A stretch of 64,000 nucleotides of DNA from an uncultured Gammaproteobacteria bacterium. GTDB lineage: Bacteria > Patescibacteriota > Microgenomatia > Daviesbacterales > UBA10151. Under the pieces are notes generated by a model. That model searched no databases. It was not told the DNA's origin and saw nothing but the letters and a program-made list of their open reading frames with translations. Below are positions 47,588 to 62,433 of the stretch, in pieces (positions within the stretch are counted from its first letter, which is position 1; each line of letters starts with the position of its first letter). Both the position numbers and the translations under genes were made by a program. The stretch is taken from NCBI GenBank assembly GCA_964500725.1, contig CAZCNP010000003.1, positions 59,476 through 123,475 of the forward strand, given 5' to 3'.

Positions 47588-50500
47588 ATGGCTGTGGAAC
47601 TAAGTGAAATATCGCCCCAACCCAGTATTAAATCTCCAATTAGCCTGGAGAGATGGAAAAATAGAGAACAACTTACCAATGAGTTCGGGAATACTAATAT
47701 CCCTGTACTTAAGCCTTTCAAATCAGTCAATGTTTCAGTAGAGACAGTTGATCAATCAGGCAACCCAGTAACAACTGTTCGTAACTTTGATACTCAAATA
47801 GAAAAAAGTTTTCAATATTACTCAAGAACCCGTAATTTAGAAGTTAATACGCCAAGAACTCAAATTTTACAAAACTTGGTAGATAAAATGACTAATGGTA
47901 CAGGTATTCAAACTAGGGTAATAATTATGAATAAGGGTAAAGAATCTAATGCCTTTGTTACCCCTGATGGAACTATATTTATTTCTCAAGCTATTATTAA
48001 TGACTTAGGCAGTTTAGATGAGATCGGAGCAATACTGGCACATGAAGTAGGACATCTTTATATCCGGACCTTTGAACATAAAGTCCAGGCAGGAAGCTTT
48101 TCAGAACATGTAACAGTGCCATGGGTGCATGAGGGAGTTTCCGATGCTTTAGCTTCTGAGTTTGGAGCGAAGGCTGATTTAAATACCTTCGCCTTTGGAC
48201 CAGCTATTGAGAAGATTTCAGGAGCAGATAGAGGATTTGAACATCAAGGAGGGTATATGCGTTCTTCGCAAAATGTGGCGCAACATTCACTAAAAAATTA
48301 TGAAACTAGTGCTAAAGCGGTTAAGCCAGTTCCAATACTGCTTCTGGGACGAATTAAACCAACTAATTTAGAAATTATCGGAGAAAGGTTGAAAAAACAT
48401 CAAGGTAGGCATCTGAAAGAAGCTCTCAGCAAGCTTCACCCTCAAGACCTGCAAAAAGTTTACCAGGATTTTCTGGGAACTCTAAATGTTGAAGAAAAAT
48501 ATCACACAGAACGTTACCAGCAAACATTTGAATTGCTAGATCAATTTAACCAACTTTTTAAAGGCAGACTAGCTCAGGCAGGCTATTCAGAAGGTCAAAT
48601 TCTGGCTTGGTTAACAACTGCTAGTCACTATCCTAGTTATGTTCGCCATAACCGCTATTTGTTTAAAACCTTACAGGATCCTATGACAGTGGCTCAGGTG
48701 ATGGTAGAAATAAGTGAAAACAGTGATCCTAAGCTTGGAGACCCTCGTATGGCTTTTTTTCGCAACATGTCAGAGGGTCTGTTTGGAGAAGCTGCTGTTT
48801 CTCCTCCCGTAGATACCTTCCTTGGATTACTTCGTGACTACCTTTATGATGAGTCCGCAAACCATCTTGACGGAAGAATACCGGTCAACCGTGACACCAT
48901 CCTGGAGATTGTAAGCAAACTGAGCGTTTTAAATTTATATTCTAATGAACAGAGTAATCTCGGTCATGTGCTGTTATCTTATATTGAGAATACATTTTAT
49001 AATACTGCAACCGAAGTAAAAGAGGAGATAGATGTTTCTCACATTACTGGTTTTTTGGATGAAGCAAAAGAAAGGGGAATTAAGCTTGAAGGATGGATAA
49101 CTGGCGGGCTAGTCGGTTTAGCTGGAGATCATCTTCATGCTTTAAAACGTGGCTCAGAAGAAGGTAGTATCGAGGTCCAAAACTATCAAAAAATAGTTGA
49201 TGTCTTAAAAGATTATTTTGGACTTTCCGAATGGCAACCATTTAGTGATATTAACCAGGAAATTGATGCCTTTTTTCAAAACTTGTCAAATGAGAGGGCT
49301 TATGCAGACTGGACAAACAGAATAAGCCTATTTTTTGGTAACTTGAGAAGGACTTTTAAACATCAGGAATTAGATGATGCCAGTAGAGAAAAGTTTATAA
49401 AATATTTATCTGATAAATTCGATAACTGGTCTGGTTTTAACAAGTACTCAGTGAGAGATATTTTAGAATCTAATCAGGTTATAGAAGCGAGGGGGCAAAA
49501 TATTGATCCAGAGGAGAATGCTGAATTAGCCAAACTACAGATCAAAACTGTCTTGGCTTTAATATTATTTCAGCAAGATGGCGATGAGTTCTACCGGTTT
49601 TTAGAAGATACAATAAATAGCAGCAGCGTTGATCTATCGTCTTTTTCTAAAGTAGGTCTGGCAAATCTTTGCAGTCCTTTATTTTTAGCTTTTAAAGATA
49701 GCATTCCTTATAATGGTTTCTGGGTGTATCACCCTGAGGCTCCTCATATGTCTGTTAGAGCATCTTTTGGTAATTTGAGAATTACCAACTTTGACCGGCT
49801 GGCAAATGTCAGTCTAGTTTCCGAATTTCTGGGAAGAGAGGAAGCAGTGGATCTTTCGTCTTGGGAGAAACTGAGAACATCTGTATTAGGTTTGGTTGGT
49901 AGATTAGGTGCAAATTCCTACGAAGCTTGTGATTTTCCTGATAGAAGTTCTAGTGCGTCACCAAAGGAGCAGTACGATATCTTCTCAGATAATGCTTTAG
50001 CTTTGATTCTTTTTTCCCAGCATCGCCAAGCATTTTTAAATTTGCTAAGTCAGGAAATTACAGAAGCAGATTTAAAGCCGCTTACTGAGGTTATTACTAC
50101 TTTATATCCGGCTGAAACTGGTAGGGATAATTTCTTACGGGCTATTCAAAAAAGATTGCTGCAGTCCAAAAATATCTCTTTGGAGGATAAAACTGAGTAT
50201 TTGCTGGATAATTTAGAAAGTTTGGGACCAGAAGGAGTTTGGATGGTGGCAGATCAAATTACTACCTTAGTTGACTATCAGAAATTTAGAGAAAAATTAG
50301 GAGATAAATTGGTTACTTATCTTGAAGGAGGAGGGGTAGTATTAAAAGCTATGGCAGCAGACTTGGTAACTAGTTTGTTAAGCGAGGGATTTGATAGAGT
50401 TATTCAAACTACTATTGATGACTCGGAGGTTGCCAAAAAAGGTTCTACTGAATTTGCAACACTATGGTTTTTGCGTAATCTAAATTTAGTAAATTTGGAA

Positions 50501-52393
50501 CACATTGGCCGTGCCAGGTATGATAGAGAGGGACAGAAATTTATTACTGGCGAAAAATCAAGAGGTGCTTTCCGAAGCATTAATGATGTATTTTCAATCC
50601 TAAGAAACTTCACTCCTACTCAGAGGTTGTTAACCCTTCATAAATCTTTGGCTGATGTGACGGGTGGGTTATCTTCTCCCAAGCGGCGTGAAAAATTAGC
50701 TGGTTTAGTAAGTAAAGCTTTAAAGCTTAAGCCTGGTTTTGTGGCAGATATTATTCAAACAACATGTTTAATAGGAGAACCAAGACTAATAAGTTTCCCT
50801 GCTGCAAATATGCTCTCGCCGATGCTTTTTCAAAACTTTGCTGTAGGTAATATTGATTATGCTGAGTTGCTGAAGTATCATTCATCTGAACTGGATGAAA
50901 AAACAGATGATGGATTTAGTAAACGTCTGGATTGGAAAGATTTTTTAACTGAACAGGAAGCAAGAAGAATTGCCAGTTCAACTACCAGACAGTTAACAGT
51001 TTTTGGAGCCAGGTTTATCAGCCAGCCTGATTCATACTTTTATACTAATGCTCAGCAATCAGATGGAATTTACTATCAGGTAAGAAATAATTTAGAAAGA
51101 CAATTGTTTGAAGAAACCAATGGGCATATTGTTGATGCAGAAGATGAAAATGGTCCTAAAGTTAATCCAGCGATTGATGCTATTATCCAAGGAGTTGAGA
51201 TGAGTGGAGCTTTAGGTGTTAGATCGCTTCAACTGGCTACTCAGCTTTTAAAATTTTCTCCTGAGGTAGAAAGAAGATTATCCAGAAGTTTAGATGCTAA
51301 TCCTGGCAGGGGAAAGCTAGCATTTTGGGAGAGATTATATGATGAGTCTCAGAAAGATCCAGCCTTATTAGCCTTATTAAGTACTTTAGAAATCGGGGAT
51401 TATTTAGGAGGGGGCAGTTTATTTACCACTTATGCTGCCACCAGGTTTGACGCCAACGGGAGAAGAAAAGAAATAGTAGTTAAGGCTTTAAATGCAAATG
51501 CTATTGGGTTTGTAGAGCAGTATTATTCTCTGGCTGCTGCAGTATTGTCACGGGTTGAAAGACATAGAGGTAATAGTTCTTTTGCTAAAGTAGCAAAGCT
51601 TCTATTAGGTGTTAGTAGGGATTGGTGTCAAGCAGATGTGGAAGATCCTGATTTTGTAACAGATGATGATAATTTTGCCTCTGTAATTCAGGCTTTTAAT
51701 ATGGCTGCTGGCAGAGAGGTTTTTCATGCTCCTCAAAGGGAATTTACCAGCAAAGATATAAAGGCAGAAGATTTAGCCAATGGTCCAACCTTAAACAAAT
51801 TACTAAAAAGTAATAGAGTTTCGCCTGAACAAAAAAAGGAGATAGTTGCTACTTTAATGAAATTTTTTGCCTTTCAGTTTAAGTTTGCTCTAACAGATTC
51901 TCAAGAGAGGCAATTCTACCAGTTCCATTCTGATCCTCATTTAGGTAATTATATTGCTCTAGATACAGAAAATCTGTCTTTATCAGTTATAGACAGGAGT
52001 ATGTATTTAAAGATACAACAAGAGGATGTAGATTTGTTGCAGGGTTTAGTTAGGGGAACAAATAGCACGAAATTTGTTAATCAGTTTATTACTAGAGTGC
52101 TGGATATAAGGGGTGTAACCAGTAAAGTACAAAGAAGGGCAATTTGGCTGCAGACTTGGTCTGCTTTAGGTAGAGAATTAGGCTCACAGGTTATCAATGG
52201 CAAGATTGATAACTTTTTACTACTTAGAACTTTATTTAATCAGTTAGACAGCTTTGGGTTAGATAAGTCAAAAGGGCCAAATGAACCAGCTTCTTCCGTG
52301 CCTTTAAATTTAAGATTAATGATTAGAAATATAGCGGCAATGAAAAAATTAGCTGAAAAATATGGTCTGAAACTAGAAGATTATATAACTTAA
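47588..52393 (+). CDS. Giant multidomain protein (1601 aa) with an N-terminal M48-like HExxH metalloprotease motif and a C-terminal ABC1/UbiB-like atypical kinase domain
   Basis: 'LGSLDEIGAILAHEVGHL' near aa 145-162 has the M48 motif form (…E..aVlAHElgH). 'LGGGSLFTTYAATRFDANGRRKEIVVKAL' near aa 1275 and 'FYQFHSDPHLGNYI' near aa 1445 match the UbiB/ABC1 ATP-binding and catalytic (ffHADpHPGNi) motifs. There are no TM helices. Confidence 0.65.
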   Translation: MAVELSEISPQPSIKSPISLERWKNREQLTNEFGNTNIPVLKPFKSVNVSVETVDQSGNPVTTVRNFDTQIEKSFQYYSRTRNLEVNTPRTQILQNLVDKMTNGTGIQTRVIIMNKGKESNAFVTPDGTIFISQAIINDLGSLDEIGAILAHEVGHLYIRTFEHKVQAGSFSEHVTVPWVHEGVSDALASEFGAKADLNTFAFGPAIEKISGADRGFEHQGGYMRSSQNVAQHSLKNYETSAKAVKPVPILLLGRIKPTNLEIIGERLKKHQGRHLKEALSKLHPQDLQKVYQDFLGTLNVEEKYHTERYQQTFELLDQFNQLFKGRLAQAGYSEGQILAWLTTASHYPSYVRHNRYLFKTLQDPMTVAQVMVEISENSDPKLGDPRMAFFRNMSEGLFGEAAVSPPVDTFLGLLRDYLYDESANHLDGRIPVNRDTILEIVSKLSVLNLYSNEQSNLGHVLLSYIENTFYNTATEVKEEIDVSHITGFLDEAKERGIKLEGWITGGLVGLAGDHLHALKRGSEEGSIEVQNYQKIVDVLKDYFGLSEWQPFSDINQEIDAFFQNLSNERAYADWTNRISLFFGNLRRTFKHQELDDASREKFIKYLSDKFDNWSGFNKYSVRDILESNQVIEARGQNIDPEENAELAKLQIKTVLALILFQQDGDEFYRFLEDTINSSSVDLSSFSKVGLANLCSPLFLAFKDSIPYNGFWVYHPEAPHMSVRASFGNLRITNFDRLANVSLVSEFLGREEAVDLSSWEKLRTSVLGLVGRLGANSYEACDFPDRSSSASPKEQYDIFSDNALALILFSQHRQAFLNLLSQEITEADLKPLTEVITTLYPAETGRDNFLRAIQKRLLQSKNISLEDKTEYLLDNLESLGPEGVWMVADQITTLVDYQKFREKLGDKLVTYLEGGGVVLKAMAADLVTSLLSEGFDRVIQTTIDDSEVAKKGSTEFATLWFLRNLNLVNLEHIGRARYDREGQKFITGEKSRGAFRSINDVFSILRNFTPTQRLLTLHKSLADVTGGLSSPKRREKLAGLVSKALKLKPGFVADIIQTTCLIGEPRLISFPAANMLSPMLFQNFAVGNIDYAELLKYHSSELDEKTDDGFSKRLDWKDFLTEQEARRIASSTTRQLTVFGARFISQPDSYFYTNAQQSDGIYYQVRNNLERQLFEETNGHIVDAEDENGPKVNPAIDAIIQGVEMSGALGVRSLQLATQLLKFSPEVERRLSRSLDANPGRGKLAFWERLYDESQKDPALLALLSTLEIGDYLGGGSLFTTYAATRFDANGRRKEIVVKALNANAIGFVEQYYSLAAAVLSRVERHRGNSSFAKVAKLLLGVSRDWCQADVEDPDFVTDDDNFASVIQAFNMAAGREVFHAPQREFTSKDIKAEDLANGPTLNKLLKSNRVSPEQKKEIVATLMKFFAFQFKFALTDSQERQFYQFHSDPHLGNYIALDTENLSLSVIDRSMYLKIQQEDVDLLQGLVRGTNSTKFVNQFITRVLDIRGVTSKVQRRAIWLQTWSALGRELGSQVINGKIDNFLLLRTLFNQLDSFGLDKSKGPNEPASSVPLNLRLMIRNIAAMKKLAEKYGLKLEDYIT

Positions 52394-53164: not shown

Positions 53165-53280
53165 TTACTGTGTTCCTACCAGGAAAACAGCTTGCCATGG
53201 TTTAATGCGAGTCTTCGAGCATCAAGACATGGCATGAATCTTACTGTGTTCCTACCAGGAAAACAGCTTGCCATGGTTTA
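53165..53280. repeat. Perfect 40-bp direct repeat (53165-53204 and 53241-53280) with a 36-bp spacer; the second copy is the 3' end of the VanW gene
   Basis: TTACTGTGTTCCTACCAGGAAAACAGCTTGCCATGGTTTA occurs twice. Copy 2 encodes the …PWQAVFLVGTQ* C-terminus of 53241..55034 on the minus strand. Confidence 0.9.
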
Positions 53281-55034
53281 TAATTAGACCTCCAGGTTTC
53301 ATTGGCAATGGTTTCCCCATTTTTAGTTACAGTTCTTTGAAAAGAAACAGAAGCTCCCCAGGCTGCCCAATCCACTTGTTTTACTGTGCCTTTGGGTAAA
53401 GTTGGATCATCTTGTCTTAACTCTGGAGGAGGTGGAGTTTGGTTTGCAATAACAGGTCTTGTCAAAGTTACTTCTCTGCCATCAGGGCTGCCATATAAAT
53501 CAACATATAAGGTGGTGCCAGAGGTATAAGCTTGAATTAAAATATGAGCTGGGGTATCATTTTTAAATTGAAAATCAACAGAAGGATAAAAAACTGTAGC
53601 ATCCAATCCAGGAGGAAAGCCTTGCTCATAGTAACCAACTCTATAGGCATGGGCAGTTCTTTTCATAACTGGCAGTCCGGCATTTAAAACTGCTCTAAAA
53701 AGAGTGGTAGAATCCTGGCAAACTCCCCCTCCATCATCTAATACTGTTCTTCCTTCTTTAATTACATATGCCTGTTTAAAGCCAGTAGCTGCAGAAATAT
53801 CTCCAACTGTTTGATTAAAAGAAAAAACTTGTCCAGGAGGTATTAAGACCCCATTAATTTTGGAGGCAGTTAAGGCAATATTGTAGATTCTGTTAGGAAT
53901 AGATCCGGCAAAGTTAGAAATACCCCTGCCTAAAAGTTCTTTGATACCTAAACTATTTACATCAGAAGTCTCAATTTTAGGTTTGACTGTTTCAACGGGC
54001 AAGGTAATGGCGTTACGCTCCAGGGCCTCGCCCTGCGAGGCTAAACTATCATTTAGGAGTTGATAAGTTTTATCTAAATCTAGTTTCCTGCCCATCTGTG
54101 ATGGTTTAAAGGCTGTAACTCTTTTGCTAGTAGGGTTAAATTCAAACAGGCCTTCCTGGACTGGTTGGTCTATTTCAGAAGCAATATTTTTAAGATAAGA
54201 GGCTGTTTGCTCTTTGTCTAAAAGTAGACCTTGCCCATCTGTTAGATTGAGTAGAGCTAGAAGCTGTTTTGCATCAATAGCCCAGCTTTTGTTACTGAAA
54301 ACTAATTTAATGGGATTTTGGTCGGTTTTTTCTAAAGCTTTTTTAGCTTGAGTAACATGACTAGTGGTTACTGTGGGGGCAACAACCTTAAGCGACAGCT
54401 GTGATTTATATTTGCCATATATGAGAAAATTAGTTACTGCTTTTTCAACTTGATTTTTGTTTAACTCTAGTCCATTGATTCCATCCACGATTTGGATATT
54501 AGCAGAGGCGCTGCTTTCAGGATTTGGTGTTTCAGAAAAGACAAGTTGAGCATTTTGAGCATCTTTCCCTACAGCATCTGCAATATTATTTAACTGTTTA
54601 TCTAAAGACAGAGTAATTTTAGGAGTGATTAGAGTAGGAAAAAGTAAAGTTTGCAATTCAGTTTTGATTTGGTTCCACAAAGCTGCTTGATGGGTATTAT
54701 CAAAAGCAGATTCTAAAGCAGAATAATCTAGTGATGCTGATGAGGTCGCAAGATCTATGGTGAAAGCTCCTTGCGCCCACTTAAAAGTTAACTTTTGCTG
54801 AGTCCTTTTTTGAAAAATAGAATCAACTTTTTTAATAGCCTGGCCTTCTGTTAAAAAGGAAATATTAATATCTCCAACAGAGGTTTGCGGGTAATATTTA
54901 TTACTTACAAAGTTTTGATAGGCGGTTATAATCAAGGCAAAAAGCAGGGCTGATAAAGCTGTGGGAAGAATCTTTGATTTTAGTCTCTCCATTATGGATA
55001 ATTTTTTGGCTTTAGCCATGCTGGTATTGTACAA
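53241..55034 (-). CDS. VanW-family protein (N-terminal TM anchor plus VanW domain)
   Basis: '…IPPGQVFSFNQTVGDISAATGFKQAYVI…GGGVCQDSTTLFRAVLNAGLPVMKRTAH' is the VanW domain signature. Length is 597 aa. Confidence 0.8.
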   Translation of the reverse strand: MYNTSMAKAKKLSIMERLKSKILPTALSALLFALIITAYQNFVSNKYYPQTSVGDINISFLTEGQAIKKVDSIFQKRTQQKLTFKWAQGAFTIDLATSSASLDYSALESAFDNTHQAALWNQIKTELQTLLFPTLITPKITLSLDKQLNNIADAVGKDAQNAQLVFSETPNPESSASANIQIVDGINGLELNKNQVEKAVTNFLIYGKYKSQLSLKVVAPTVTTSHVTQAKKALEKTDQNPIKLVFSNKSWAIDAKQLLALLNLTDGQGLLLDKEQTASYLKNIASEIDQPVQEGLFEFNPTSKRVTAFKPSQMGRKLDLDKTYQLLNDSLASQGEALERNAITLPVETVKPKIETSDVNSLGIKELLGRGISNFAGSIPNRIYNIALTASKINGVLIPPGQVFSFNQTVGDISAATGFKQAYVIKEGRTVLDDGGGVCQDSTTLFRAVLNAGLPVMKRTAHAYRVGYYEQGFPPGLDATVFYPSVDFQFKNDTPAHILIQAYTSGTTLYVDLYGSPDGREVTLTRPVIANQTPPPPELRQDDPTLPKGTVKQVDWAAWGASVSFQRTVTKNGETIANETWRSNYKPWQAVFLVGTQ

Positions 55035-55049
55035 GTTTGAGGTATAATT

Positions 55050-56372
55050 GTGAAGGCTACTATGAAAAAGATTATCATCATTGTTTTATCTATAAGCATT
55101 GTTTTGGGTTTTATCATCTGGAAATTTGGGCCCAATATCTCCCTTTTTAATAAGCCTAAACCTGCTGGTCCAATAACCTTAACTTATTGGGGTTTATGGG
55201 AAGATGATAATTTAATAAAGCCGGTAATAGCTGCATACCAGCAGCAAAATCCTAATATCACCATTAACTACGAGCGTAAATCTTCAGTAAATTACAGAAC
55301 CAGGGCCCAGACTCAAATTAGAGAAGGAGTAGGGCCGGATGTTTTTAGAATTCATAATTCCTGGTTGCCTATGTTTATTGCTGATCTGGCTCCTGCTCCA
55401 CAGGATATTTTTACAATAACAGACTATAAAAATCTTTTTTATCCGGTAGCTGCTGATAGTTTTACTTCTGGCAACCAAATTTATGGCGCGCCAATGGAGG
55501 TAGATGGTTTGGCTCTTTTTTACAATGAAGAGATGTTGGCAGGGATTGGAGGTAAGCCGCCTAAAAACTGGCAGGAATTTATTGACCTTTCTACTAAAAT
55601 GACAGTAAAAGATGCCACTGGTATTCAAACCGCAGGAGCAGCTTTAGGGACTGCCTCAAATGTTGATCACTGGTCTGATATTTTGGGGCTGTTGCTTTTT
55701 CAGCAGCCAGGAGTGGATTTCAATAATTTAGCCACAACCCAAGTTGCTGAAATTTTTAGCTTTTATACCGGATTTGTGATAGATCCTAGAAAAAAGACCT
55801 GGGATGTGAATTTGCCTAAGTCGACAGATATGTTTGCTGCAGGCAGATTAGGTTTTTACTTTGCTCCTTCTTGGAGGGCTCATGAGTTAAGGATTACTAA
55901 TCCAAACTTGAAGTTTAAAGTGGCACCAGTGCCTCAGCTTCCTGGAAAAACTGTAGGTTGGGCAACGTTTTGGGGAGAGGTTGTTTCTTCGAGATCTCAA
56001 AATGTGTCAGAGGCCTGGAAGTTTGTTAAGTTTCTGACATCTGCGGAGACAGAAAGATTAGCTTACCAGCAAGCTTCTCAAATCAGATTATTTGGTGAGC
56101 CTTATTCTCAGGTTAGTCTTGGGTCAGAGCTTGCTGCTGACCCAATAGTGGGGGCATTTGTGACTCAAGGGCCAAATTATAAATCCTGGTATTTATCTTC
56201 TAGCACTTTTGACAATGGTATAAATGATGAAACGATCAAATATTTTGAAGATGGGATAAATGCCACTTTGGCAGGAACAGATCCCCAAGCTGCTTTGCAA
56301 ACAGTAGATCAAGGGGTAAAACAAGTCCTGGATAAATATACCAGATCTGTACCTACGCCAAGTTCCAGATAA
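55050..56372 (+). CDS. ABC transporter extracellular solute-binding protein (family 1, sugar-type)
   Basis: An N-terminal anchor/signal is followed by 'ITLTYWGLWEDDNLIKPVIAAYQQQNPNITINYER', typical of SBP_bac_1. Length is 440 aa. Confidence 0.7.
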   Translation: MKATMKKIIIIVLSISIVLGFIIWKFGPNISLFNKPKPAGPITLTYWGLWEDDNLIKPVIAAYQQQNPNITINYERKSSVNYRTRAQTQIREGVGPDVFRIHNSWLPMFIADLAPAPQDIFTITDYKNLFYPVAADSFTSGNQIYGAPMEVDGLALFYNEEMLAGIGGKPPKNWQEFIDLSTKMTVKDATGIQTAGAALGTASNVDHWSDILGLLLFQQPGVDFNNLATTQVAEIFSFYTGFVIDPRKKTWDVNLPKSTDMFAAGRLGFYFAPSWRAHELRITNPNLKFKVAPVPQLPGKTVGWATFWGEVVSSRSQNVSEAWKFVKFLTSAETERLAYQQASQIRLFGEPYSQVSLGSELAADPIVGAFVTQGPNYKSWYLSSSTFDNGINDETIKYFEDGINATLAGTDPQAALQTVDQGVKQVLDKYTRSVPTPSSR

Positions 56373-56900: not shown

Positions 56901-57224
56901 ATGTTCAAAATTGTTATCTTTGTGCCTATAAAAGATGCCCAAAAAGTTAGAAAAGCTATGGGAGATGCAGGAGCAGGGGTGTTGGGAAATTATACCCATG
57001 CTTCTTTTTCTACAAAAGGAATTGGTAGGTTTTTGCCTCAAGAGGGTGCTCATCCAGCAATTGGAAAGCTAGGAGAGCTTGCAGAGGTGGAAGAAGAAAG
57101 AATAGAAGTAATTTGCCAGAAAGAAAAAGTAAAAGAAGTAATAGCTGCAATTAAGGCAAATCATCCATATGAAGAGGTGCCTTTAGAAGTTTACCAATTA
57201 GTAGGTGAAGAGGAGTTAAACTAA
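56901..57224 (+). CDS. Small PII/CutA-like protein (uncertain family)
   Basis: 107 aa with a C-terminal 'HPYEEVPLEV' reminiscent of CutA-type HPYEVPE. The N-terminus does not match CutA well. Confidence 0.35.
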   Translation: MFKIVIFVPIKDAQKVRKAMGDAGAGVLGNYTHASFSTKGIGRFLPQEGAHPAIGKLGELAEVEEERIEVICQKEKVKEVIAAIKANHPYEEVPLEVYQLVGEEELN

Positions 57225-58112
57225 GGGTGGAAGGTTGATAAGTTGGACTTCAGGTTCCAGGGTAATTCCAAATTTGTCCTTAACTTTTTGAGCATATTCT
57301 TTGGCTAAATCATAAAAGGCCTTAGCTGTTCCAGCGCCTTGGTTGATAAATAAATTAGCATGGTATGGCGCTATTGCTATTCCATCTGAGGACTGGCCGC
57401 GGGCTCCTACCATCTCAAGGAGTGTTCCAGCAGGTAACTTACCATAAACAATTTTATCTTCAGGAATATTTTTTAGGATTTCTTGAGGGATTTCTGAGGC
57501 TACTAAATTTTTGAAAAAGCTGCCAGGACATTTAATTCCAGGAGGGTATTTAACCAATCTTTTGCTGATAGTTTCTTGGGCTTCTTGTTTTAAAATTTCT
57601 GGATTTCCTGATTCAAAAAGGAAACTAGCTTCTAATATTATGTATTTGCTTCTTTTAAAATTACTGTCTCTATAGTTAAAGCCACACTCTGATTTAGTTA
57701 AAGTGGTTATTTTATTACCATCAAAGACTACAACTTCAGAAAGATAATCAGAGATGGTTTGGCCATATGCTCCTGCATTGCCATAAACTGCCCCACCAAC
57801 TGTACCTGGTATTCCTGATAGCTTTTGTAATCCAGATAGACCATGACTTACAGTGTAGTCAACAAGTTCCTGCAAAGGAGTACCGCTTTTGACAGTTACA
57901 ATATTGCCTTTGCTTTCTACACCTGTAATTTCATTTTTTATGACTAAACAATCTACTCCTTCATCAGAAACAAGTAAATTACTGCCTCCTCCAATGATCA
58001 AAAAATCAGGATTGCTTTTAATTAGCTCCAATAATTCTTGTGGCGTCCGGACAACTTTAAAATCTTGAGCTTCCCCTCCAATCTCCAGGGTGGTGATTTT
58101 ACTCATTAACAT
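57216..58112 (-). CDS. murB: UDP-N-acetylenolpyruvoylglucosamine reductase
   Basis: The FAD-binding 'TLEIGGEAQDF…IIGGGSNLLVSDEGV' and 'SGIPGTVGGAVYGNAGAYG' are present. Length is 298 aa. Confidence 0.8.
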   Translation of the reverse strand: MLMSKITTLEIGGEAQDFKVVRTPQELLELIKSNPDFLIIGGGSNLLVSDEGVDCLVIKNEITGVESKGNIVTVKSGTPLQELVDYTVSHGLSGLQKLSGIPGTVGGAVYGNAGAYGQTISDYLSEVVVFDGNKITTLTKSECGFNYRDSNFKRSKYIILEASFLFESGNPEILKQEAQETISKRLVKYPPGIKCPGSFFKNLVASEIPQEILKNIPEDKIVYGKLPAGTLLEMVGARGQSSDGIAIAPYHANLFINQGAGTAKAFYDLAKEYAQKVKDKFGITLEPEVQLINLPPLV

Positions 58113-58127
58113 GTGTAGAATTGTACC

Positions 58128-58988
58128 ATGGAAAAGGCGGTCTTAAAAACTTTAATCTATGCTGATATTTTTGATTATCCTTTGAAAATAAATGAAATTC
58201 ACAAGTGGTTGGTAGGGAAAAAGTCAACTTTAAGGCAAGTAGACAGGACTGTAAAAAAGTTGAATCTTGAATCAAGAATTGGCAATTTTGGGGACTATTA
58301 CTTTTTAAAGGAAAGAAAACAATTAGTTAGAAAGAGATTATACAGAGTAAATCAGTCAGTAATTTATTTTAAAAAAGCAAAGATACTTTCTCAAATCTTA
58401 AAAATTATCCCCTGGATTAAACTGGTAGGAATATCTGGCGGACTATCTATGGAAAATGCTAGTAAAAAAGACGACATAGATTTGTTTATTATCCTAGGCA
58501 AAAACCGTTTATGGATTTCCAGGCTATTTATTTTAGGACTATTGTCTTTGGCAGGTCAAAGAAGAACAAGAGTTGGGAAAATTGCTGGGAAATTATGTGT
58601 CAATATTTTATTAGAAGAAGATAAGCTAGAACAGGTAAATAAGGATATTTTTATTTCTCATGAAGTTTTACAAATGAAGGTTTTATGGCAAAGGGATGGA
58701 ATGTATTCTAATTACCTTGAGGATAATTCCTGGGCTTTTAAATTTTTACCCAATTGGATAACTAATGAAAGCTTTAAAAATCATAAATCATATATCGTAA
58801 ATCATAAATCACCCTTAGATTATATAGAGAATCTAGCTAAATGGTTTCAGTTAAAGATTATGCAAAAACCAAGAGGTCTAGAGAGAATAGAAGATGGGGC
58901 TTTATATTTTCATCCAAAAGATTTAAGGCAGGAAGTTTTAACCAGGTATAAAAAGAGAATTACAAAGCTAAAAAGTATTGCAAATTAG
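58128..58988 (+). CDS. Pol-beta-superfamily nucleotidyltransferase domain protein (hypothetical)
   Basis: 'GISGGLSMENASKKDDIDLFII' fits hG[GS]…DhDh. Length is 286 aa. Confidence 0.4.
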   Translation: MEKAVLKTLIYADIFDYPLKINEIHKWLVGKKSTLRQVDRTVKKLNLESRIGNFGDYYFLKERKQLVRKRLYRVNQSVIYFKKAKILSQILKIIPWIKLVGISGGLSMENASKKDDIDLFIILGKNRLWISRLFILGLLSLAGQRRTRVGKIAGKLCVNILLEEDKLEQVNKDIFISHEVLQMKVLWQRDGMYSNYLEDNSWAFKFLPNWITNESFKNHKSYIVNHKSPLDYIENLAKWFQLKIMQKPRGLERIEDGALYFHPKDLRQEVLTRYKKRITKLKSIAN

Positions 58989-58996
58989 ACTTAAAG

Positions 58997-59302
58997 GTGA
59001 GCATAATATTTCTAAAGAGCATTATTATTATGCCCAAAAAAAGTAATTCCCAACAAGGTCACCTTCTTATATTATTACTACTGGTAATTGGGGTTGCTGC
59101 TGTATTGGTTTTTTTGGGAAGTAAGTATAAAAACCTTTTTTCTAAAGGATCTGTTGCGGGAACAACTTCTGTTTTAAATGTTAGTGGTATTTTTCCTTCC
59201 CTGGCTATGTTTGGGGATGCGAGAAATGCTGAGCCTGAATGTTGTAATGAGACTGGTATTGGAGCTTTAGTGAATTGGGCAGGCCGATTATGGGCGGTAT
59301 AA
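58997..59302 (+). CDS. Small signal-anchor/TM protein, possibly the detached N-terminus of the following large protein
   Basis: 'LLILLLLVIGVAAVLVFLG' is a TM segment. The ORF overlaps the start of 59275..62031 in another frame. Confidence 0.3.
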   Translation: MSIIFLKSIIIMPKKSNSQQGHLLILLLLVIGVAAVLVFLGSKYKNLFSKGSVAGTTSVLNVSGIFPSLAMFGDARNAEPECCNETGIGALVNWAGRLWAV

Positions 59303-62031
59303 CTTATCCTCCGCATAATTGGAACGGTAGTTACGATCCATTATATTCTATTAATCCTAGTACCTGGCAATTAACAAAATATCCATTAGTTTCTGAGAGA
59401 GGTCAGAGTGGCATTAGTGTTGGGGGTACCAATTCTGCCAGAATGATCCATAAAGAGTCTAACCAGCTAATTATTGGACCATATTTTATTAAAAATGATG
59501 GTTCTGTTAGAAAAATTACCCCGGATAAAATGCCAGGCCGCTTAACTGGTGTAGCCCGTCATTTAACAGATCCCAGCAATAAAGTCTACTTTTATACTAT
59601 GGAACAAGGACTTTATGAAGTTAATGTTAATGATTTATCTGTTAGGCAATTACATATAGATGCTAACAAAGAAGCAGGCAGGCTATCTAATCACATTTTA
59701 AGCCCAATTGCTCCTGGTGCCCATGGGAAATCAGCCTACTCTGGTCAAGGAAGATTAATTATTGCCAATAATGGTATTGATCCTGGTAAGCCGGTACCTC
59801 CGGGTGGGGGTTTGGCTGAATGGGATGGATCAGGAGATCCCGGCAGCGCTAGTTCGTGGAGAGTTATAGAAAATAATAAATTTACAGATATTACTGGACC
59901 TGGAGGTATTGAGGGCTCGCCTTCCAGTAATAGTCCAGTTTGGGCAATAGGCTGGGATAATAAATCAAACATTTTAAAGCTGTTGGATCAAGGGAGCTGG
60001 TATACCTATCGTTTGCCTAAATCTACTCATACATTTGATGATTATCATGGTTGGTTAACAGAATGGCCGAGAATTCATAAGCTTAACAATAATTCCTATA
60101 TTATGGATATGTTTGGGATGTTTTATTCGTTCCCGGGAGTTTTAGCAAGAATCATTCAGCGAGGAAAATTTAGATTCCCTAAGCAAGATCTATTTGAAAA
60201 TACCTATTCTGCAGCAGAAAAACCTCGAATAGTTAAACTGGTGGCGGTTGATAGATATTTGATGAACCTTGCAGGTACCTTATATGAACTACCATACCCA
60301 GAATCAGGAGGGGTGGGAAACATTAAGCCTATTTCAACACATAATAAACTAATTTACGATATGGCTTCATGGAGGGGCTTGCTGGTCTTAAGTGGAAATT
60401 TAACTAGCGCTGCAAATGATGGGCACTTTGTTAAATCTGAAGATGGAAAAACTGGATTATGGTTTGGCAGCATTGATGATTTGTGGAAATTAGGTTCACC
60501 AAGAGGGGTAGGCGGACCTTGGGCTAATACTCAGGTAATAGCCAATCAGCCTTCTGATCCATATCTTATGGCAGGTTATGATAGCAAAACTTTGCAAATA
60601 ACGCACAATTCTCAAAGTAATGTATCTTTTACAGTGGAAGTTGATTTAACAGGAAAGGGAGATTGGCAGGTTTATAATAAAGAGCCTTTTGTAGTTTTGC
60701 CAAAACAAACTTTTATACATAAATTTCCAGATGGATTTTCTGCTCAATGGGTGCGATTAAAAGCAAGCAGTGCTGCAACTGTTACAGCTAAATTTATTTA
60801 TTCTTCAGGTAAAGATGCTTTTAATGAAGGGTTTTGTAGTGCAACAGGGTGGGAAGCTCGTGAAGATCTACCTACCCCAGGACAATCATACAACTCATAC
60901 AGTCATGCTGTATTGCCAGATGGCAGGTTAAAACAAGCTGTTTTAGGAAATGATGGTAAAACTTTATATGCTCGATACCTAACTTGGAATCAAAGTAGTA
61001 AATCATGGGGAAATCCAACAAATTGGGAAAGCACGGCTGAGGGTTGGCCAGATCATAACGGCGCTTACTTGTCCTTTGATGAAGTAACCTTTCCTGATAA
61101 AAGGTTAAAACAAACATTCCTCAGCAGTGATGGTAAAAATCTATATTGGCGTTATTTGACTTGGGATCAATCTAGTAAAAAATGGTCTAGTATTGGGAAG
61201 TGGGAAAACAGAGGATCAAAGGATTTACCTAGTAGTATGGATTCTTACGCCTCCTTTGATCATATAGTATTGTCTGATAACCGAATTAAACAAACAGCAC
61301 TTTTATCCAATGGTAAAACTATTTACTATAGATACCTCAGTTGGAATGATCAAAGTAAATATTGGGATAACCTTACTCAATGGTATTCCCAAAGTCTAGA
61401 TTCTGCTGATTCAAACCAAAGATATAGAGGATTTGATAGTGTTGTATTTCCTGACAGTAGATTAAAAGAAACTTTAATAAGTGCTGACGGTAAAAATTTA
61501 TCTTGGCATTACTGGACAGCTTGTTCTGGATCAGGCGCCCCCTCATCTGGATCTGGAAGTGTTTCAACTCAGACAACAGAAGAATATACTACCTCCTATC
61601 AGGTAGCCTATGATAGCAGGCCTACTAATGAGACAGAATGGGGAGCAGAGCAAGTTTACGCAGAAAATATTAAAGTTACCCATACCTTTTCTTCTATCCC
61701 AGGAGATAAATTTATCTTTGTCAGATTTAAAACTAACAAAGGAAATACAGCAGTAAAACAATTAAAGGTAGTGCTTGTTGCTTCTCCTGCTCCTTCTGCA
61801 ACAGTTATACCAACTACAGTTTCAACCCAAGCTCCTGCAACTCAAATTTCTTGCAATAGGTGCAGTGTTATAAATGCTTATCAGCGAACTGAATTTAATT
61901 CAGAAGATTTAACTTGTAAAAGACCCTGGCCTGCTTCCAACCCTGTTACCAGAACTTGTGACTGCAGCTGTCCATCAGCAGGACTTGATGCTTCCTGGAA
62001 CAGTAGCTGTGCAGCAACTTGTGCACAATAA
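59275..62031 (+). CDS. Large secreted/surface-type protein (918 aa) with four ~55-aa tandem lectin-like repeats and a Cys-rich C-terminus
   Basis: The repeats read 'F(D)xVxxPDxRLKQxxLxxDGKxLYxRYLTWxQSSKxW…' four times (DNA about 60890-61530). The C-terminus is 'CNRCSV…CKRPW…CDCSCPSAGLDASWNSSCAATCAQ'. The listed ORF starts with TTG; an ATG lies at 59290. Confidence 0.6.
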   Translation: MGRPIMGGITYPPHNWNGSYDPLYSINPSTWQLTKYPLVSERGQSGISVGGTNSARMIHKESNQLIIGPYFIKNDGSVRKITPDKMPGRLTGVARHLTDPSNKVYFYTMEQGLYEVNVNDLSVRQLHIDANKEAGRLSNHILSPIAPGAHGKSAYSGQGRLIIANNGIDPGKPVPPGGGLAEWDGSGDPGSASSWRVIENNKFTDITGPGGIEGSPSSNSPVWAIGWDNKSNILKLLDQGSWYTYRLPKSTHTFDDYHGWLTEWPRIHKLNNNSYIMDMFGMFYSFPGVLARIIQRGKFRFPKQDLFENTYSAAEKPRIVKLVAVDRYLMNLAGTLYELPYPESGGVGNIKPISTHNKLIYDMASWRGLLVLSGNLTSAANDGHFVKSEDGKTGLWFGSIDDLWKLGSPRGVGGPWANTQVIANQPSDPYLMAGYDSKTLQITHNSQSNVSFTVEVDLTGKGDWQVYNKEPFVVLPKQTFIHKFPDGFSAQWVRLKASSAATVTAKFIYSSGKDAFNEGFCSATGWEAREDLPTPGQSYNSYSHAVLPDGRLKQAVLGNDGKTLYARYLTWNQSSKSWGNPTNWESTAEGWPDHNGAYLSFDEVTFPDKRLKQTFLSSDGKNLYWRYLTWDQSSKKWSSIGKWENRGSKDLPSSMDSYASFDHIVLSDNRIKQTALLSNGKTIYYRYLSWNDQSKYWDNLTQWYSQSLDSADSNQRYRGFDSVVFPDSRLKETLISADGKNLSWHYWTACSGSGAPSSGSGSVSTQTTEEYTTSYQVAYDSRPTNETEWGAEQVYAENIKVTHTFSSIPGDKFIFVRFKTNKGNTAVKQLKVVLVASPAPSATVIPTTVSTQAPATQISCNRCSVINAYQRTEFNSEDLTCKRPWPASNPVTRTCDCSCPSAGLDASWNSSCAATCAQ

Positions 62032-62112: not shown

Positions 62113-62433
62113 ATGGCTAAAACTAAATTAAATAACAGTAACAAAGTTTCAATTAAACCCCTCATGGGTTATGTGTTGGTTGCTCCCTCTGAAGCAGAAA
62201 GCAGAACTTCTTCTGGTATAATCCTGCCAGAATCAGCCCAGGAAAAACCAGCCCAGGGAAAAGTGGTAGCTTGCGGTGATGAGATGGTGATGGAAAATGG
62301 CAAGAGTGTTAAATGTCCAGTAAGTGTGGGAGATAAAGTAGTTTACAAAAAATGGGGTGGGGATGAAATAAAAGTTGATGGTAAAGAAATGAAACTAGTA
62401 AAATTTGATGATTTAATGGCAATATTAGAATAA
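62113..62433 (+). CDS. groES: Co-chaperonin GroES
   Basis: 'IKPLMGYVLVAPSEAESRTSSGIILPESAQEKPAQGKVVACGD' is typical of GroES. Length is 106 aa. Confidence 0.9.
   Translation: MAKTKLNNSNKVSIKPLMGYVLVAPSEAESRTSSGIILPESAQEKPAQGKVVACGDEMVMENGKSVKCPVSVGDKVVYKKWGGDEIKVDGKEMKLVKFDDLMAILE

Follow-up and report, generated by a model that had tools for sequence, protein, structure and literature searches.

Organization of the locus

Positions refer to the window, the whole 64,000-nt stretch of DNA that was analysed. The large ORF 59275..62031 (+ strand), described in the initial annotation, codes for 918 aa from a TTG start, with the stop codon within these coordinates. NCBI and Logan gene calls place its start at ATG 59290, giving the 913-aa hypothetical protein HY383_01625 of Candidatus Daviesbacteria. 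The 918-aa ORF itself lacks a signal peptide. It overlaps by 13-28 nt an upstream ORF relative to which its frame is -1, and a GGAG sequence lies 10 nt 5' of TTG 59275.

The upstream signal-anchor ORF, also recognized in the initial annotation, is present in the other frame and ends at 59302. ATG 59030 is its likely start, beginning a 'MPKK...' sequence common to the relative P0026, and the Logan gene calls give it 90 aa. Its Lys-rich N-terminus is followed by a hydrophobic stretch, a signal-anchor transmembrane segment (aa ~12-31, nt ~59063-59122), and its aa ~52-88 correspond to the conserved N-terminal motif 'SGIFPSLAMFGD..ETGIGALVNWAGRLW' of the protein family presented below.

59030..59302, + strand: upstream ORF, detached 5' end of the gene (90 aa from ATG 59030; 101 aa if GTG 58997 is the start)
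59291..59299, + strand: frameshift site (Trp codon TGG 59291-59293, spacer GCGGT 59294-59298, Ile codon ATA 59299-59301 of 'ITYPP')

A frameshift between two overlapping ORFs

Aa 46-88 of the upstream ORF match aa 2-38 of P0065 (BLASTP E = 2e-08). In tblastn, aa 1-94 of P0026 map to 59030-59299, the alignment with this protein keeping to frame 2 as far as nt 59299 and to frame 1 from there on. The intact relatives P0026 and P0002 carry '...CCNETGIGA..W..K.W.ITYPP...' in one frame, and across the site matching the frameshift relatives have the N-terminal sequences 'WANKLWMITYPP' and 'WANKIWVITYPP'. The spacer between the conserved Trp and Ile codons is 5 nt long (GCGGT) at the locus versus one codon in relatives. 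The N-terminal motif of the family (SGIYPHLA...E.GIGA...W...LW.TYP) is encoded in the upstream ORF, in a frame other than that of the propeller. Since the C-terminal part of the upstream ORF carries this motif and intact relatives read straight through, homology shows the two overlapping ORFs to be remains of a single ancestral gene. This bears out the suspicion in the initial annotation that a frameshift splits one exported protein, orthologs of which would show a fused ORF: P0026 and P0002 have the single frame and tblastn switches frame at nt 59299. Residues E74, G78 and W83 of the upstream ORF (A1 positions E29, G33 and W38) do not vary among the 100 family members aligned; all three are encoded 5' of the frameshift and hence outside the 918-aa frame.

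The homology demands a single frame, short G runs are found at the site (TGGGCGG) and all assemblies may share one sampling site and sequencing chemistry, which would suit a sequencing or assembly artefact masking an intact ORF of ~1000 aa. We hold this to be highly improbable. The junction is identical in seven Logan assemblies (seven sequencing runs of two accession series: SRR12113420, SRR12113422, SRR12113424, SRR12113430, SRR12113431 and SRR12113385 in one, SRR4343430 in the other) and in the NCBI MAG, with flanks of 100% identity over 2.9-4.2 kb in the Logan assemblies. Assembly error is unlikely because these seven runs were assembled independently. Short-read indel errors typically need longer runs than GGG or GG, depending on the platform, and the runs at the site are too short for them. 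When the JGI metagenome and GTDB genome collections were scanned by exact pattern for junctions of other lengths, no copy of the locus turned up, and so neither a variant nor support.

The zero-frame codons of 59240-59302 are TGT TGT AAT GAG ACT GGT ATT GGA GCT TTA GTG AAT TGG GCA GGC CGA TTA TGG GCG GTA TAA. The overlap 59250-59302, read in this frame, contains no slippery heptamer of the X XXY YYZ type and no homopolymer run for transcriptional slippage. A programmed -1 frameshift was rejected for want of a slippery site in the overlap.

The N-terminal module and its family

Over half of the protein, aa 9-510, belongs to a large unnamed family, with 4972 matches among 8000 candidates scored; the best 120 of these 4972 (the P0002-P0120 set) have E-values of 5e-213 to 8e-161 over aa 9-510. 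The initial annotation dwelt on the repeats further downstream, which stand, and overlooked this enzyme-like module. Searches of Pfam, NCBIfam and PDB sequences with the whole protein, its parts and family profiles gave no informative match, and a literature search found no publication on this family or on that of the repeats. The module points to a very large family outside the coverage of these three resources. Its fold is predicted to be a β-propeller followed by a β-sandwich.

59299..60138, + strand: predicted propeller blades of the N-terminal domain, aa 9-288 (last blade 'YRLPKS...MFGMFYSFP')
60139..60168, + strand: deletion junction, aa 289-298 'GVLARIIQRG' (from alignment columns and BLASTP gaps versus P0065, P0002 and P0026)
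60166..60804, + strand: second (C-terminal) copy of a duplicated module, with predicted blades in aa 298-~398 ('KFRFPKQ...LYELP...') and an 8-strand β-sandwich in aa ~411-510 (secondary structure from the structure model)

Aa 9-510 and the C-terminal part of the upstream ORF are 36-45% identical to this family of ~800-aa β-propeller proteins, from which the window copy differs by the frameshift split, by ~280 missing aa and by three extra C-terminal modules. The combination of family module and four-repeat propeller occurs elsewhere only in P0002 and P0138. Other members include the hypothetical protein P0071 of Paenibacillus ginsengarvi, a tandem pair in Dyadobacter psychrotolerans (L029) and P0075 of 'Candidatus Pseudobacter hemicellulosilyticus'. 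The window copy keeps 121 of the 152 most conserved positions. In the retained part it has 8 substitutions at conserved positions versus 14-15 in its nearest intact relatives, P0002 and P0026.

Genes of the family lie directly 3' of SusD genes in Dyadobacter and Paraflavitalea, and MFS sugar transporters are found downstream of family genes. The loci of Pontiella are flanked by GH43-like and DUF2961 genes and that of Membranihabitans by a sulfatase gene. In three Paenibacillus genomes a divergent LacI gene stands beside the family gene, with SBP_bac_1 and GH26 near one of them; the Paenibacillus members have no signal peptide. A link of the family to FAD oxidoreductases of PF12831 recurs as well. 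Some family members carry F5/8-C, CHB_HEX_C or T9SS tails, and dozens of charged residues are invariant in the family. Given these many invariant charged residues and the polysaccharide-utilization contexts, the N-terminal module, on the analogy of its neighbourhood and domain partners, is probably the working part of the protein, a glycan-binding or glycan-cleaving unit. The occurrence of the family beside SusD, sugar transporters and LacI in cultivable Bacteroidota and Paenibacillus makes it tractable for the search of a new glycan-active activity.

The family module is duplicated in relatives, which have a blade-plus-sandwich unit on either side of a linker; the window copy has the second unit only. 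The remaining unit is much closer to the second copy of relatives than to their first, with 47-52% identity to that of P0065 (aa 565-778) and P0026 (aa 655-865). At the junction relatives hold ~270-285 aa that comprise two blades, the first β-sandwich and the linker, a stretch kept by every relative inspected. The deletion is in-frame and clean in the alignment, and 23 of the 152 highly conserved positions are gone with it. The AF2 model of the deleted form is a coherent fold (pTM 0.84) with a low-confidence segment at model residues 323-346 (aa 287-310). Many match spans of ~1.3 kb could point to a family form that is short by nature, a reading that was rejected: the ORFs of L074 and L055 are long forms of 825 and 980 aa.

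Four repeats and a predicted hemopexin-type propeller

The four tandem repeats of the initial annotation are present at 60889..61524 with a length of ~59 aa each, the fourth being shorter.

60835..61524, + strand: predicted four-bladed hemopexin-fold β-propeller, aa 521-750 (blade starts at nt 60889, 61066, 61246 and 61423)
60889-61065, + strand: protein-level repeat R1, aa 539-597
61066-61245, + strand: protein-level repeat R2, aa 598-657
61246-61422, + strand: protein-level repeat R3, aa 658-716
61423-61524, + strand: protein-level repeat R4, aa 717-750, shorter

The repeats share 31-54% pairwise identity. Compared with a repeat profile built in part from these same four units, each gives E = 1e-16 to 2e-26. 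No further copy is found elsewhere in the window. DNA tandem-repeat finders detect only a trivial array of three 8-nt units at 60882-60906, so that the repeat is visible at the protein level alone.

The idea that the repeats are β-propeller blades agrees with the AF2 model of the region (pLDDT 89.8, pTM 0.87), and fold comparison predicts that the four form a single four-bladed propeller of the hemopexin type. The tachylectin/tectonin/AAL-like fold that had been envisaged for them does not hold. Tachylectin-2, tectonin and AAL/RSL are also repeat-built β-propellers, able to bind sugars between or on their blades; these folds of 5-6 blades are absent from the top 60 fold matches and were rejected. 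Each repeat opens with a long strand 'Y.SFD.V', whose Asp is conserved in blades 2-4. The N-terminal sequence 'WEAR' matches the W-E-x-R motif that ends the repeats and is a strand in the model, from which we infer that it completes the last blade. Cys521 and Cys750, the sole Cys of the first 859 aa, flank the repeat domain, which has no Cys inside, and sit where a hemopexin-type disulfide between the start of blade 1 and the end of blade 4 would be expected. They probably form a disulfide closing the ring, which would require export. The flanking Cys pair is found also in 6 relatives and others close the ring by a permuted strand; two such solutions to ring closure are of value to studies of how propellers evolve and to domain databases.

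Hemopexin-like (HX/PEX) domains, like those of hemopexin, vitronectin and matrix metalloproteinases (PF00045), have the four-bladed propeller fold predicted for the window repeats, whereas kinship in sequence is undetectable, with 4-14% identity in structural alignments. PF00045 gives no match at E <= 1 to the whole protein or to the repeat region, and no PDB sequence is hit at E <= 10 by a profile built from 18 repeat domains. The window repeats are ~59 aa long, all-β and have a short fourth strand, unlike the animal HX blades described in PMC6739113 as a three-strand sheet plus a helix. The module is moreover bacterial, found in metagenomes only, and joined to glycan-enzyme-like modules instead of metalloproteases. 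Its relatives have mostly 4 (or 8) repeats and occur with BNR_4, the GH31 C-terminal domain, CrtC and dockerin. They were found, like those of the C-terminal modules, by exhaustive phmmer search; word-indexed homolog search returned nothing for the C-terminal 400 aa and only P0125 for the 18-sequence repeat profile. As a sequence family the four-repeat unit is new, while its predicted fold is known; with it the four-bladed hemopexin fold would gain a bacterial branch of sequence orphans.

Also close in fold are plant hemopexin-fold seed albumins (PA2 type, 3s18, Dolichos DC25), with 4% sequence identity to the window domain; they are stand-alone, cytoplasmic and devoid of the flanking Cys pair. 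The ligands of plant hemopexin-fold albumins include spermine and haem and are not known to include defined glycans. The fold match among these albumins, the chickpea lectin-like albumin 3s18, is described as hemagglutinating in work cited within PMC6934871.

This match, the predicted propeller, the attachment of the repeat module to secreted proteins of glycan-active type and the membrane-anchored, extracellular nature of the ancestral protein would all suit the glycan-binding surface protein of the initial annotation, here an adhesin whose repeats act as a propeller lectin attaching the episymbiont to its host and whose N-terminal part is a non-catalytic scaffold. We regard such a role, drawn by analogy, as rather unlikely. 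Hemopexin-fold domains bind mostly proteins, haem or polyamines. Pfam and related searches found no lectin family and no sugar-binding motif in the protein. Cytoplasmic members controlled by LacI and dozens of invariant charged residues in the N-terminal family fit an enzyme better than a scaffold. The gene is moreover disrupted in this genome, and the locus should not be counted as an active episymbiont adhesin.

C-terminal modules

61531..61854, + strand: Ser/Gly/Thr linker, small β-rich domain (core aa ~773-837) and Pro/Thr/Ala linker (from phmmer)
61852..62028, + strand: 8-Cys C-terminal module, aa 860-918

The phmmer matches P0127, P0128, P0130, P0131, P0133 and P0137 cover only the stretch 61531..61854, with 33-62% identity. 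The small β domain has no Pfam match and occurs with dockerin, CBM_4_9, TSP1 and PKD partners; from this distribution it is taken as an independently mobile module. The Cys-rich C-terminus noticed in the initial annotation has 8 Cys in aa 860-916. Its phmmer matches are P0135, P0136, P0139, P0141, P0142, P0144 and P0150, some of which reach into the preceding domain, and its partners are FAD_oxidored, Peptidase_M23, fn3 and dockerin. By the same kind of comparison the 8-Cys module, too, is independently mobile.

State of the gene

We favour, with moderate confidence, the hypothesis that the locus 59030..62031 was a single gene for a membrane-anchored multi-domain protein and that it is now, most likely, a pseudogene of recent inactivation. 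What follows for this genome is chiefly a corrected annotation: HY383_01625, the hypothetical protein of 913 aa, and the short ORF before it are two fragments of one disrupted gene. From homology and structure prediction, the ancestral product would have been a type-II membrane-anchored extracellular protein with, in this order, a signal anchor, a propeller plus sandwich, a four-bladed propeller, a linker, a small β domain, a Pro/Thr linker and an 8-Cys module. The four-bladed propeller may have served as an accessory ligand-binding module, appended like carbohydrate-binding modules, its ring closed by the N-terminal strand and probably by the Cys521-Cys750 disulfide. The frameshift within 59294-59298 severs the first propeller strand, with the invariant Glu/Gly/Trp, along with the signal anchor, and the in-frame deletion has taken ~280 aa with two blades, the first sandwich and the linker. 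At best, the product would be cytoplasmic and N-terminally truncated. With much of a module lost and invariant residues removed by the frameshift, the gene looks disabled and is not likely to encode an active adhesin. The few substitutions at conserved positions (8) and the still open 918-codon frame speak for a recent inactivation.

The open frame and the low number of substitutions relative to P0002 and P0026 would also fit a gene that is functional despite the frame change, either by programmed recoding (-1 or +2) that yields the full anchored protein or by translation of the 913/918-aa ORF alone, with coupled re-initiation at TTG 59275 or ATG 59290 and a product that works without the first strand. 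This allele is the only one in the 8 assemblies, the short ORF overlap and the GGAG before TTG would suit re-initiation, and the Paenibacillus members devoid of signal peptide suggest that a cytoplasmic propeller module can be functional. We judge this explanation distinctly unlikely. Besides the lack of a slippery heptamer or homopolymer run in the overlap, a stand-alone product would miss the strand with the invariant Glu/Gly/Trp, and a disulfide-type propeller with an 8-Cys module would stay in the cytoplasm. The anchor fragment would have its C-terminal part on the outer side of the membrane, away from the large fragment in the cytoplasm, making their reassembly impossible.

It is possible, if doubtful, that the four-repeat unit is an undescribed bacterial family of four-bladed hemopexin-fold propellers, devoid of detectable sequence relatives and serving as a new carbohydrate- or surface-binding module for extracellular enzymes in uncultured bacteria, that the large N-terminal family is a new, unnamed class of polysaccharide-active enzymes and that the window copy is still expressed, all three together. 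In that propeller family either a circularly permuted strand or the flanking disulfide would close the ring.

Some observations run counter to the inactivation that we favour. The 918-codon frame is intact in a genome of ~37% G+C and conserved residues are kept, which would fit a product in use. The coherent AF2 fold of the deleted form indicates that the deletion alone need not inactivate the protein. The GGAG sequence upstream of TTG 59275 leaves room for independent translation of the large ORF.

A gene split by a frameshift

The locus at positions 59030 to 62031 comprises two overlapping ORFs, the second in the -1 frame relative to the first:

59030 to 59302, + strand: upstream ORF, 90 aa, likely starting at ATG 59030
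59275 to 62031, + strand: large ORF, 918 aa

ATG 59030 is the likely start because an intact homologous protein, P0026, opens with the same 'MPKK...' and because gene calls in Logan assemblies also give 90 aa. In the upstream product, a signal anchor of ~20 hydrophobic residues comes after a Lys-rich N-terminus. Read from ATG 59290, the large ORF encodes a 913-aa product identical, in a database protein search, to 'hypothetical protein HY383_01625' of a Candidatus Daviesbacteria MAG; eight contigs carry its coding sequence. The large ORF carries four tandem units of ~59 aa, starting at aa 539, 598, 658, and 717, with 31-54% pairwise identity and E values of 1e-16 to 2e-26 per repeat against a profile that includes these same units. 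Eight Cys lie within its final 59 residues. The elements listed in the initial annotation (918-aa ORF, four repeats, Cys-rich C-terminus, and upstream signal-anchor ORF in another frame) are all present.

Among 5.8 billion proteins searched, 4972 of the 8000 candidates scored match the large ORF. Those listed are all unnamed and almost all ~770-840 aa long, and their matches are confined to aa 9-510. The N-termini of the family matches all bear 'SGIYPHLAV...E(C/T)GIGAVV.WA.KLW.(I/L)TYP'. The window splits this motif between the two ORFs: 'SGIFPSLAMFGD...ETGIGALVNWAGRLW' closes the upstream ORF and 'ITYPPHNW' opens the homologous part of the large one. In tblastn against the window, P0026 aligns in two different frames, aa 1-94 to 59030-59299 and aa 94-541 to 59299-60795. 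Five nucleotides separate the Trp codon (59291-59293) from the Ile codon (59299-59301), where relatives have three. The divided motif and the frame switch bear out the earlier suggestion that a frameshift splits one exported protein. The single fused ORF that the initial annotation proposed to look for is seen in P0002 and P0026, the two closest relatives among the matches listed; P0026 shares the 'CCNETGIGA' stretch with the window copy and bears a CPR-like signal anchor as well. Glu29, Gly33, and Trp38, invariant in a 100-sequence alignment, all lie upstream of the shift, in or beside the first strand of the first blade in an AF2 model.

Seven Logan assemblies from seven different runs (SRR12113420, SRR12113422, SRR12113424, SRR12113430, SRR12113431, SRR12113385, and SRR4343430) match the window at 100% identity over 2.9-4.2 kb, junction included. 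Random assembly error is unlikely since the junction is the same in these separately assembled runs, and we find a sequencing or assembly artefact of any kind very hard to credit. Two other collections scanned for junction-length variants yielded no copy of the locus.

An in-frame deletion and the present state of the gene

Members of the N-terminal family contain a duplicated unit. Residues 295-510 of the large ORF match aa 565-778 of the homolog P0065 at 47% identity and aa 655-865 of P0026 at 52%, and match the first copy (P0065 aa ~300-470) weakly. The window sequence passes from '...MFGMFYSFP' over ~280 alignment columns to 'KFRFPKQ...' (the family's 'RYRLPKG'), with ten unrelated residues at the junction. 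The second lesion is an in-frame deletion of ~280 aa, a part retained in every relative inspected. Apparent short matches in GTDB genomes, considered as a natural short form of the family, were long forms of 825 and 980 aa in the cases inspected.

Of the 152 positions with at least 95% conservation across the family, 121 are retained in the window copy, 23 went with the deletion, and 8 are substituted, against 14-15 substitutions in the nearest intact relatives. Judged by sequence, the retained part appears free of prolonged decay, so that inactivation would be recent or the product still in use. The low substitution count speaks for continued use, through independent translation of the large ORF or recoding of some kind. 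However, the ORF overlap has neither an X XXY YYZ slippery heptamer nor a long homopolymer, leaving programmed recoding without visible basis, and we hold continued use to be unlikely. With export signals and an invariant strand missing from the large ORF as it now stands, a recent pseudogene is the most likely state. The Lys-rich N-terminus, the Cys pair flanking the repeats, and the 8-Cys module suggest an ancestral protein held in the membrane by its N-terminal helix, the remainder lying outside the cell.

The N-terminal module

The N-terminal module gives no Pfam, NCBIfam, or PDB sequence match, even by family profile. AF2 modelling of the N-terminal part after conceptual repair (558 aa, alignment of 100 sequences) gives an all-beta structure with pLDDT 84 and pTM 0.84, in which blade-like four-strand sets precede an eight-strand sandwich; modelling is poor only at the deletion junction and over the final eight residues.

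The family gene lies directly 3' of SusD-family genes in Dyadobacter psychrotolerans and Paraflavitalea, with MFS sugar transporters downstream of it in Pedobacter and Paraflavitalea. It is flanked by a GH43-like and a DUF2961 gene in Pontiella sulfatireligans and adjoined by a sulfatase in Membranihabitans. Three Paenibacillus genomes encode a member without signal peptide, divergent beside a LacI regulator, one of these loci having an adjacent sugar-binding protein and a nearby GH26 gene. Some members carry F5/8-type-C, CHB_HEX_C, or T9SS domains. This context points, with moderate confidence, to glycan processing or binding by a large, uncharacterised family linked to polysaccharide-utilisation loci. 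The big propeller module would act on a glycan, with the four-bladed propeller as accessory binding module. The lectin and host-attachment role put forward in the initial annotation is hypothetical, and that the protein is purely an adhesin or lectin seems to us rather improbable. PF12831 FAD oxidoreductases recur near family genes, which may reflect a functional link, perhaps oxidative glycan processing.

In a contig scan of GTDB species representatives, the family occurs mainly in Bacteroidota, Verrucomicrobiota, Planctomycetota, Kiritimatiellae/Lentisphaerae, and Paenibacillus. The absence of CPR genomes among the best 80 loci suggests horizontal acquisition of the Daviesbacteria copy.

PF12831 genes adjoin intact members at the homolog loci L008, L012, and L014; in a Bryobacteraceae MAG they lie on both sides of the member, together with a BNR_2 gene. 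Two tandem paralogs sit directly downstream of a SusD-family gene in D. psychrotolerans (locus L029, 3001-5184 and 5219-7696), a cultivable system for probing the function of the family.

The predicted four-repeat propeller and C-terminal modules

An exhaustive phmmer search with aa 516-918 against 1.84 billion representatives matched only 35 proteins. Three modules, each mobile on its own, make up this region: the repeats, a small beta-rich domain, and the Cys-rich end, the last fused to a PF12831 protein in the homologs P0141 and P0136. Repeat-bearing proteins, all unnamed and metagenome-derived, mostly have exactly four repeats; one has eight, in two sets of four. Partner domains are BNR_4, a GH31 C-terminal domain, a CrtC lipocalin domain, or dockerin, and in two proteins (P0002, P0138) the N-terminal family.

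In the AF2 model of aa 525-760, built with 18 aligned domains (pLDDT 89.8, pTM 0.87), each of four equivalent blades comprises three long strands and a short one. AF2 assigns a strand to the N-terminal 'WEAR', which fits the W-E-x-R motif closing each repeat, and from this we infer that 'WEAR' probably completes the last blade as its fourth strand. The beta-propeller blades proposed in the initial annotation are recovered in this model, although of four-bladed hemopexin type instead of the tachylectin/tectonin/AAL type. Pfam searches of the protein and its repeats and a PDB profile search give no PF00045 membership; the repeats resemble hemopexin domains in predicted fold and are a new sequence family of that known fold. 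Besides a disrupted gene, the locus offers this family and a pointer to the large N-terminal one.

Cys521 and Cys750, the sole Cys in the first 859 residues, bracket the repeat domain, a placement like that of the disulfide closing animal hemopexin domains into a ring (PMC6739113); the bond here is putative. The same pair is found in P0121, P0124, P0125, P0126, and P0129. In P0122, P0140, P0002, P0143, and P0132 the domain starts one strand later, at 'LKQ', and ends with an extra 'YLSYD' strand, a permuted 'velcro' closure by circular permutation. Two ring closures, a flanking Cys pair and a circular permutation, occur within this propeller family.

Neighbouring genes

The neighbouring window ORFs that were scanned include no glycoside hydrolase. 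An SBP_bac_1 and a VanW protein gene lie 3-6 kb upstream of the split gene, and MurB and GroES genes flank the locus:

47588-52393, + strand: 1601-aa ORF
53241-55034, - strand: VanW/PG_binding_4/G5 protein
55050-56372, + strand: SBP_bac_1 sugar-type ABC solute-binding protein
57216-58112, - strand: MurB
58128-58988, + strand: 286-aa ORF
62113-62433: GroES

The sole Pfam match of the 1601-aa ORF is a short Peptidase_M48 stretch near its N-terminus (aa 93-160), leaving ~1400 aa without annotation. Pfam gives no match for the 286-aa ORF, which immediately precedes the split gene and is co-linear with it in every Logan contig reaching that far.
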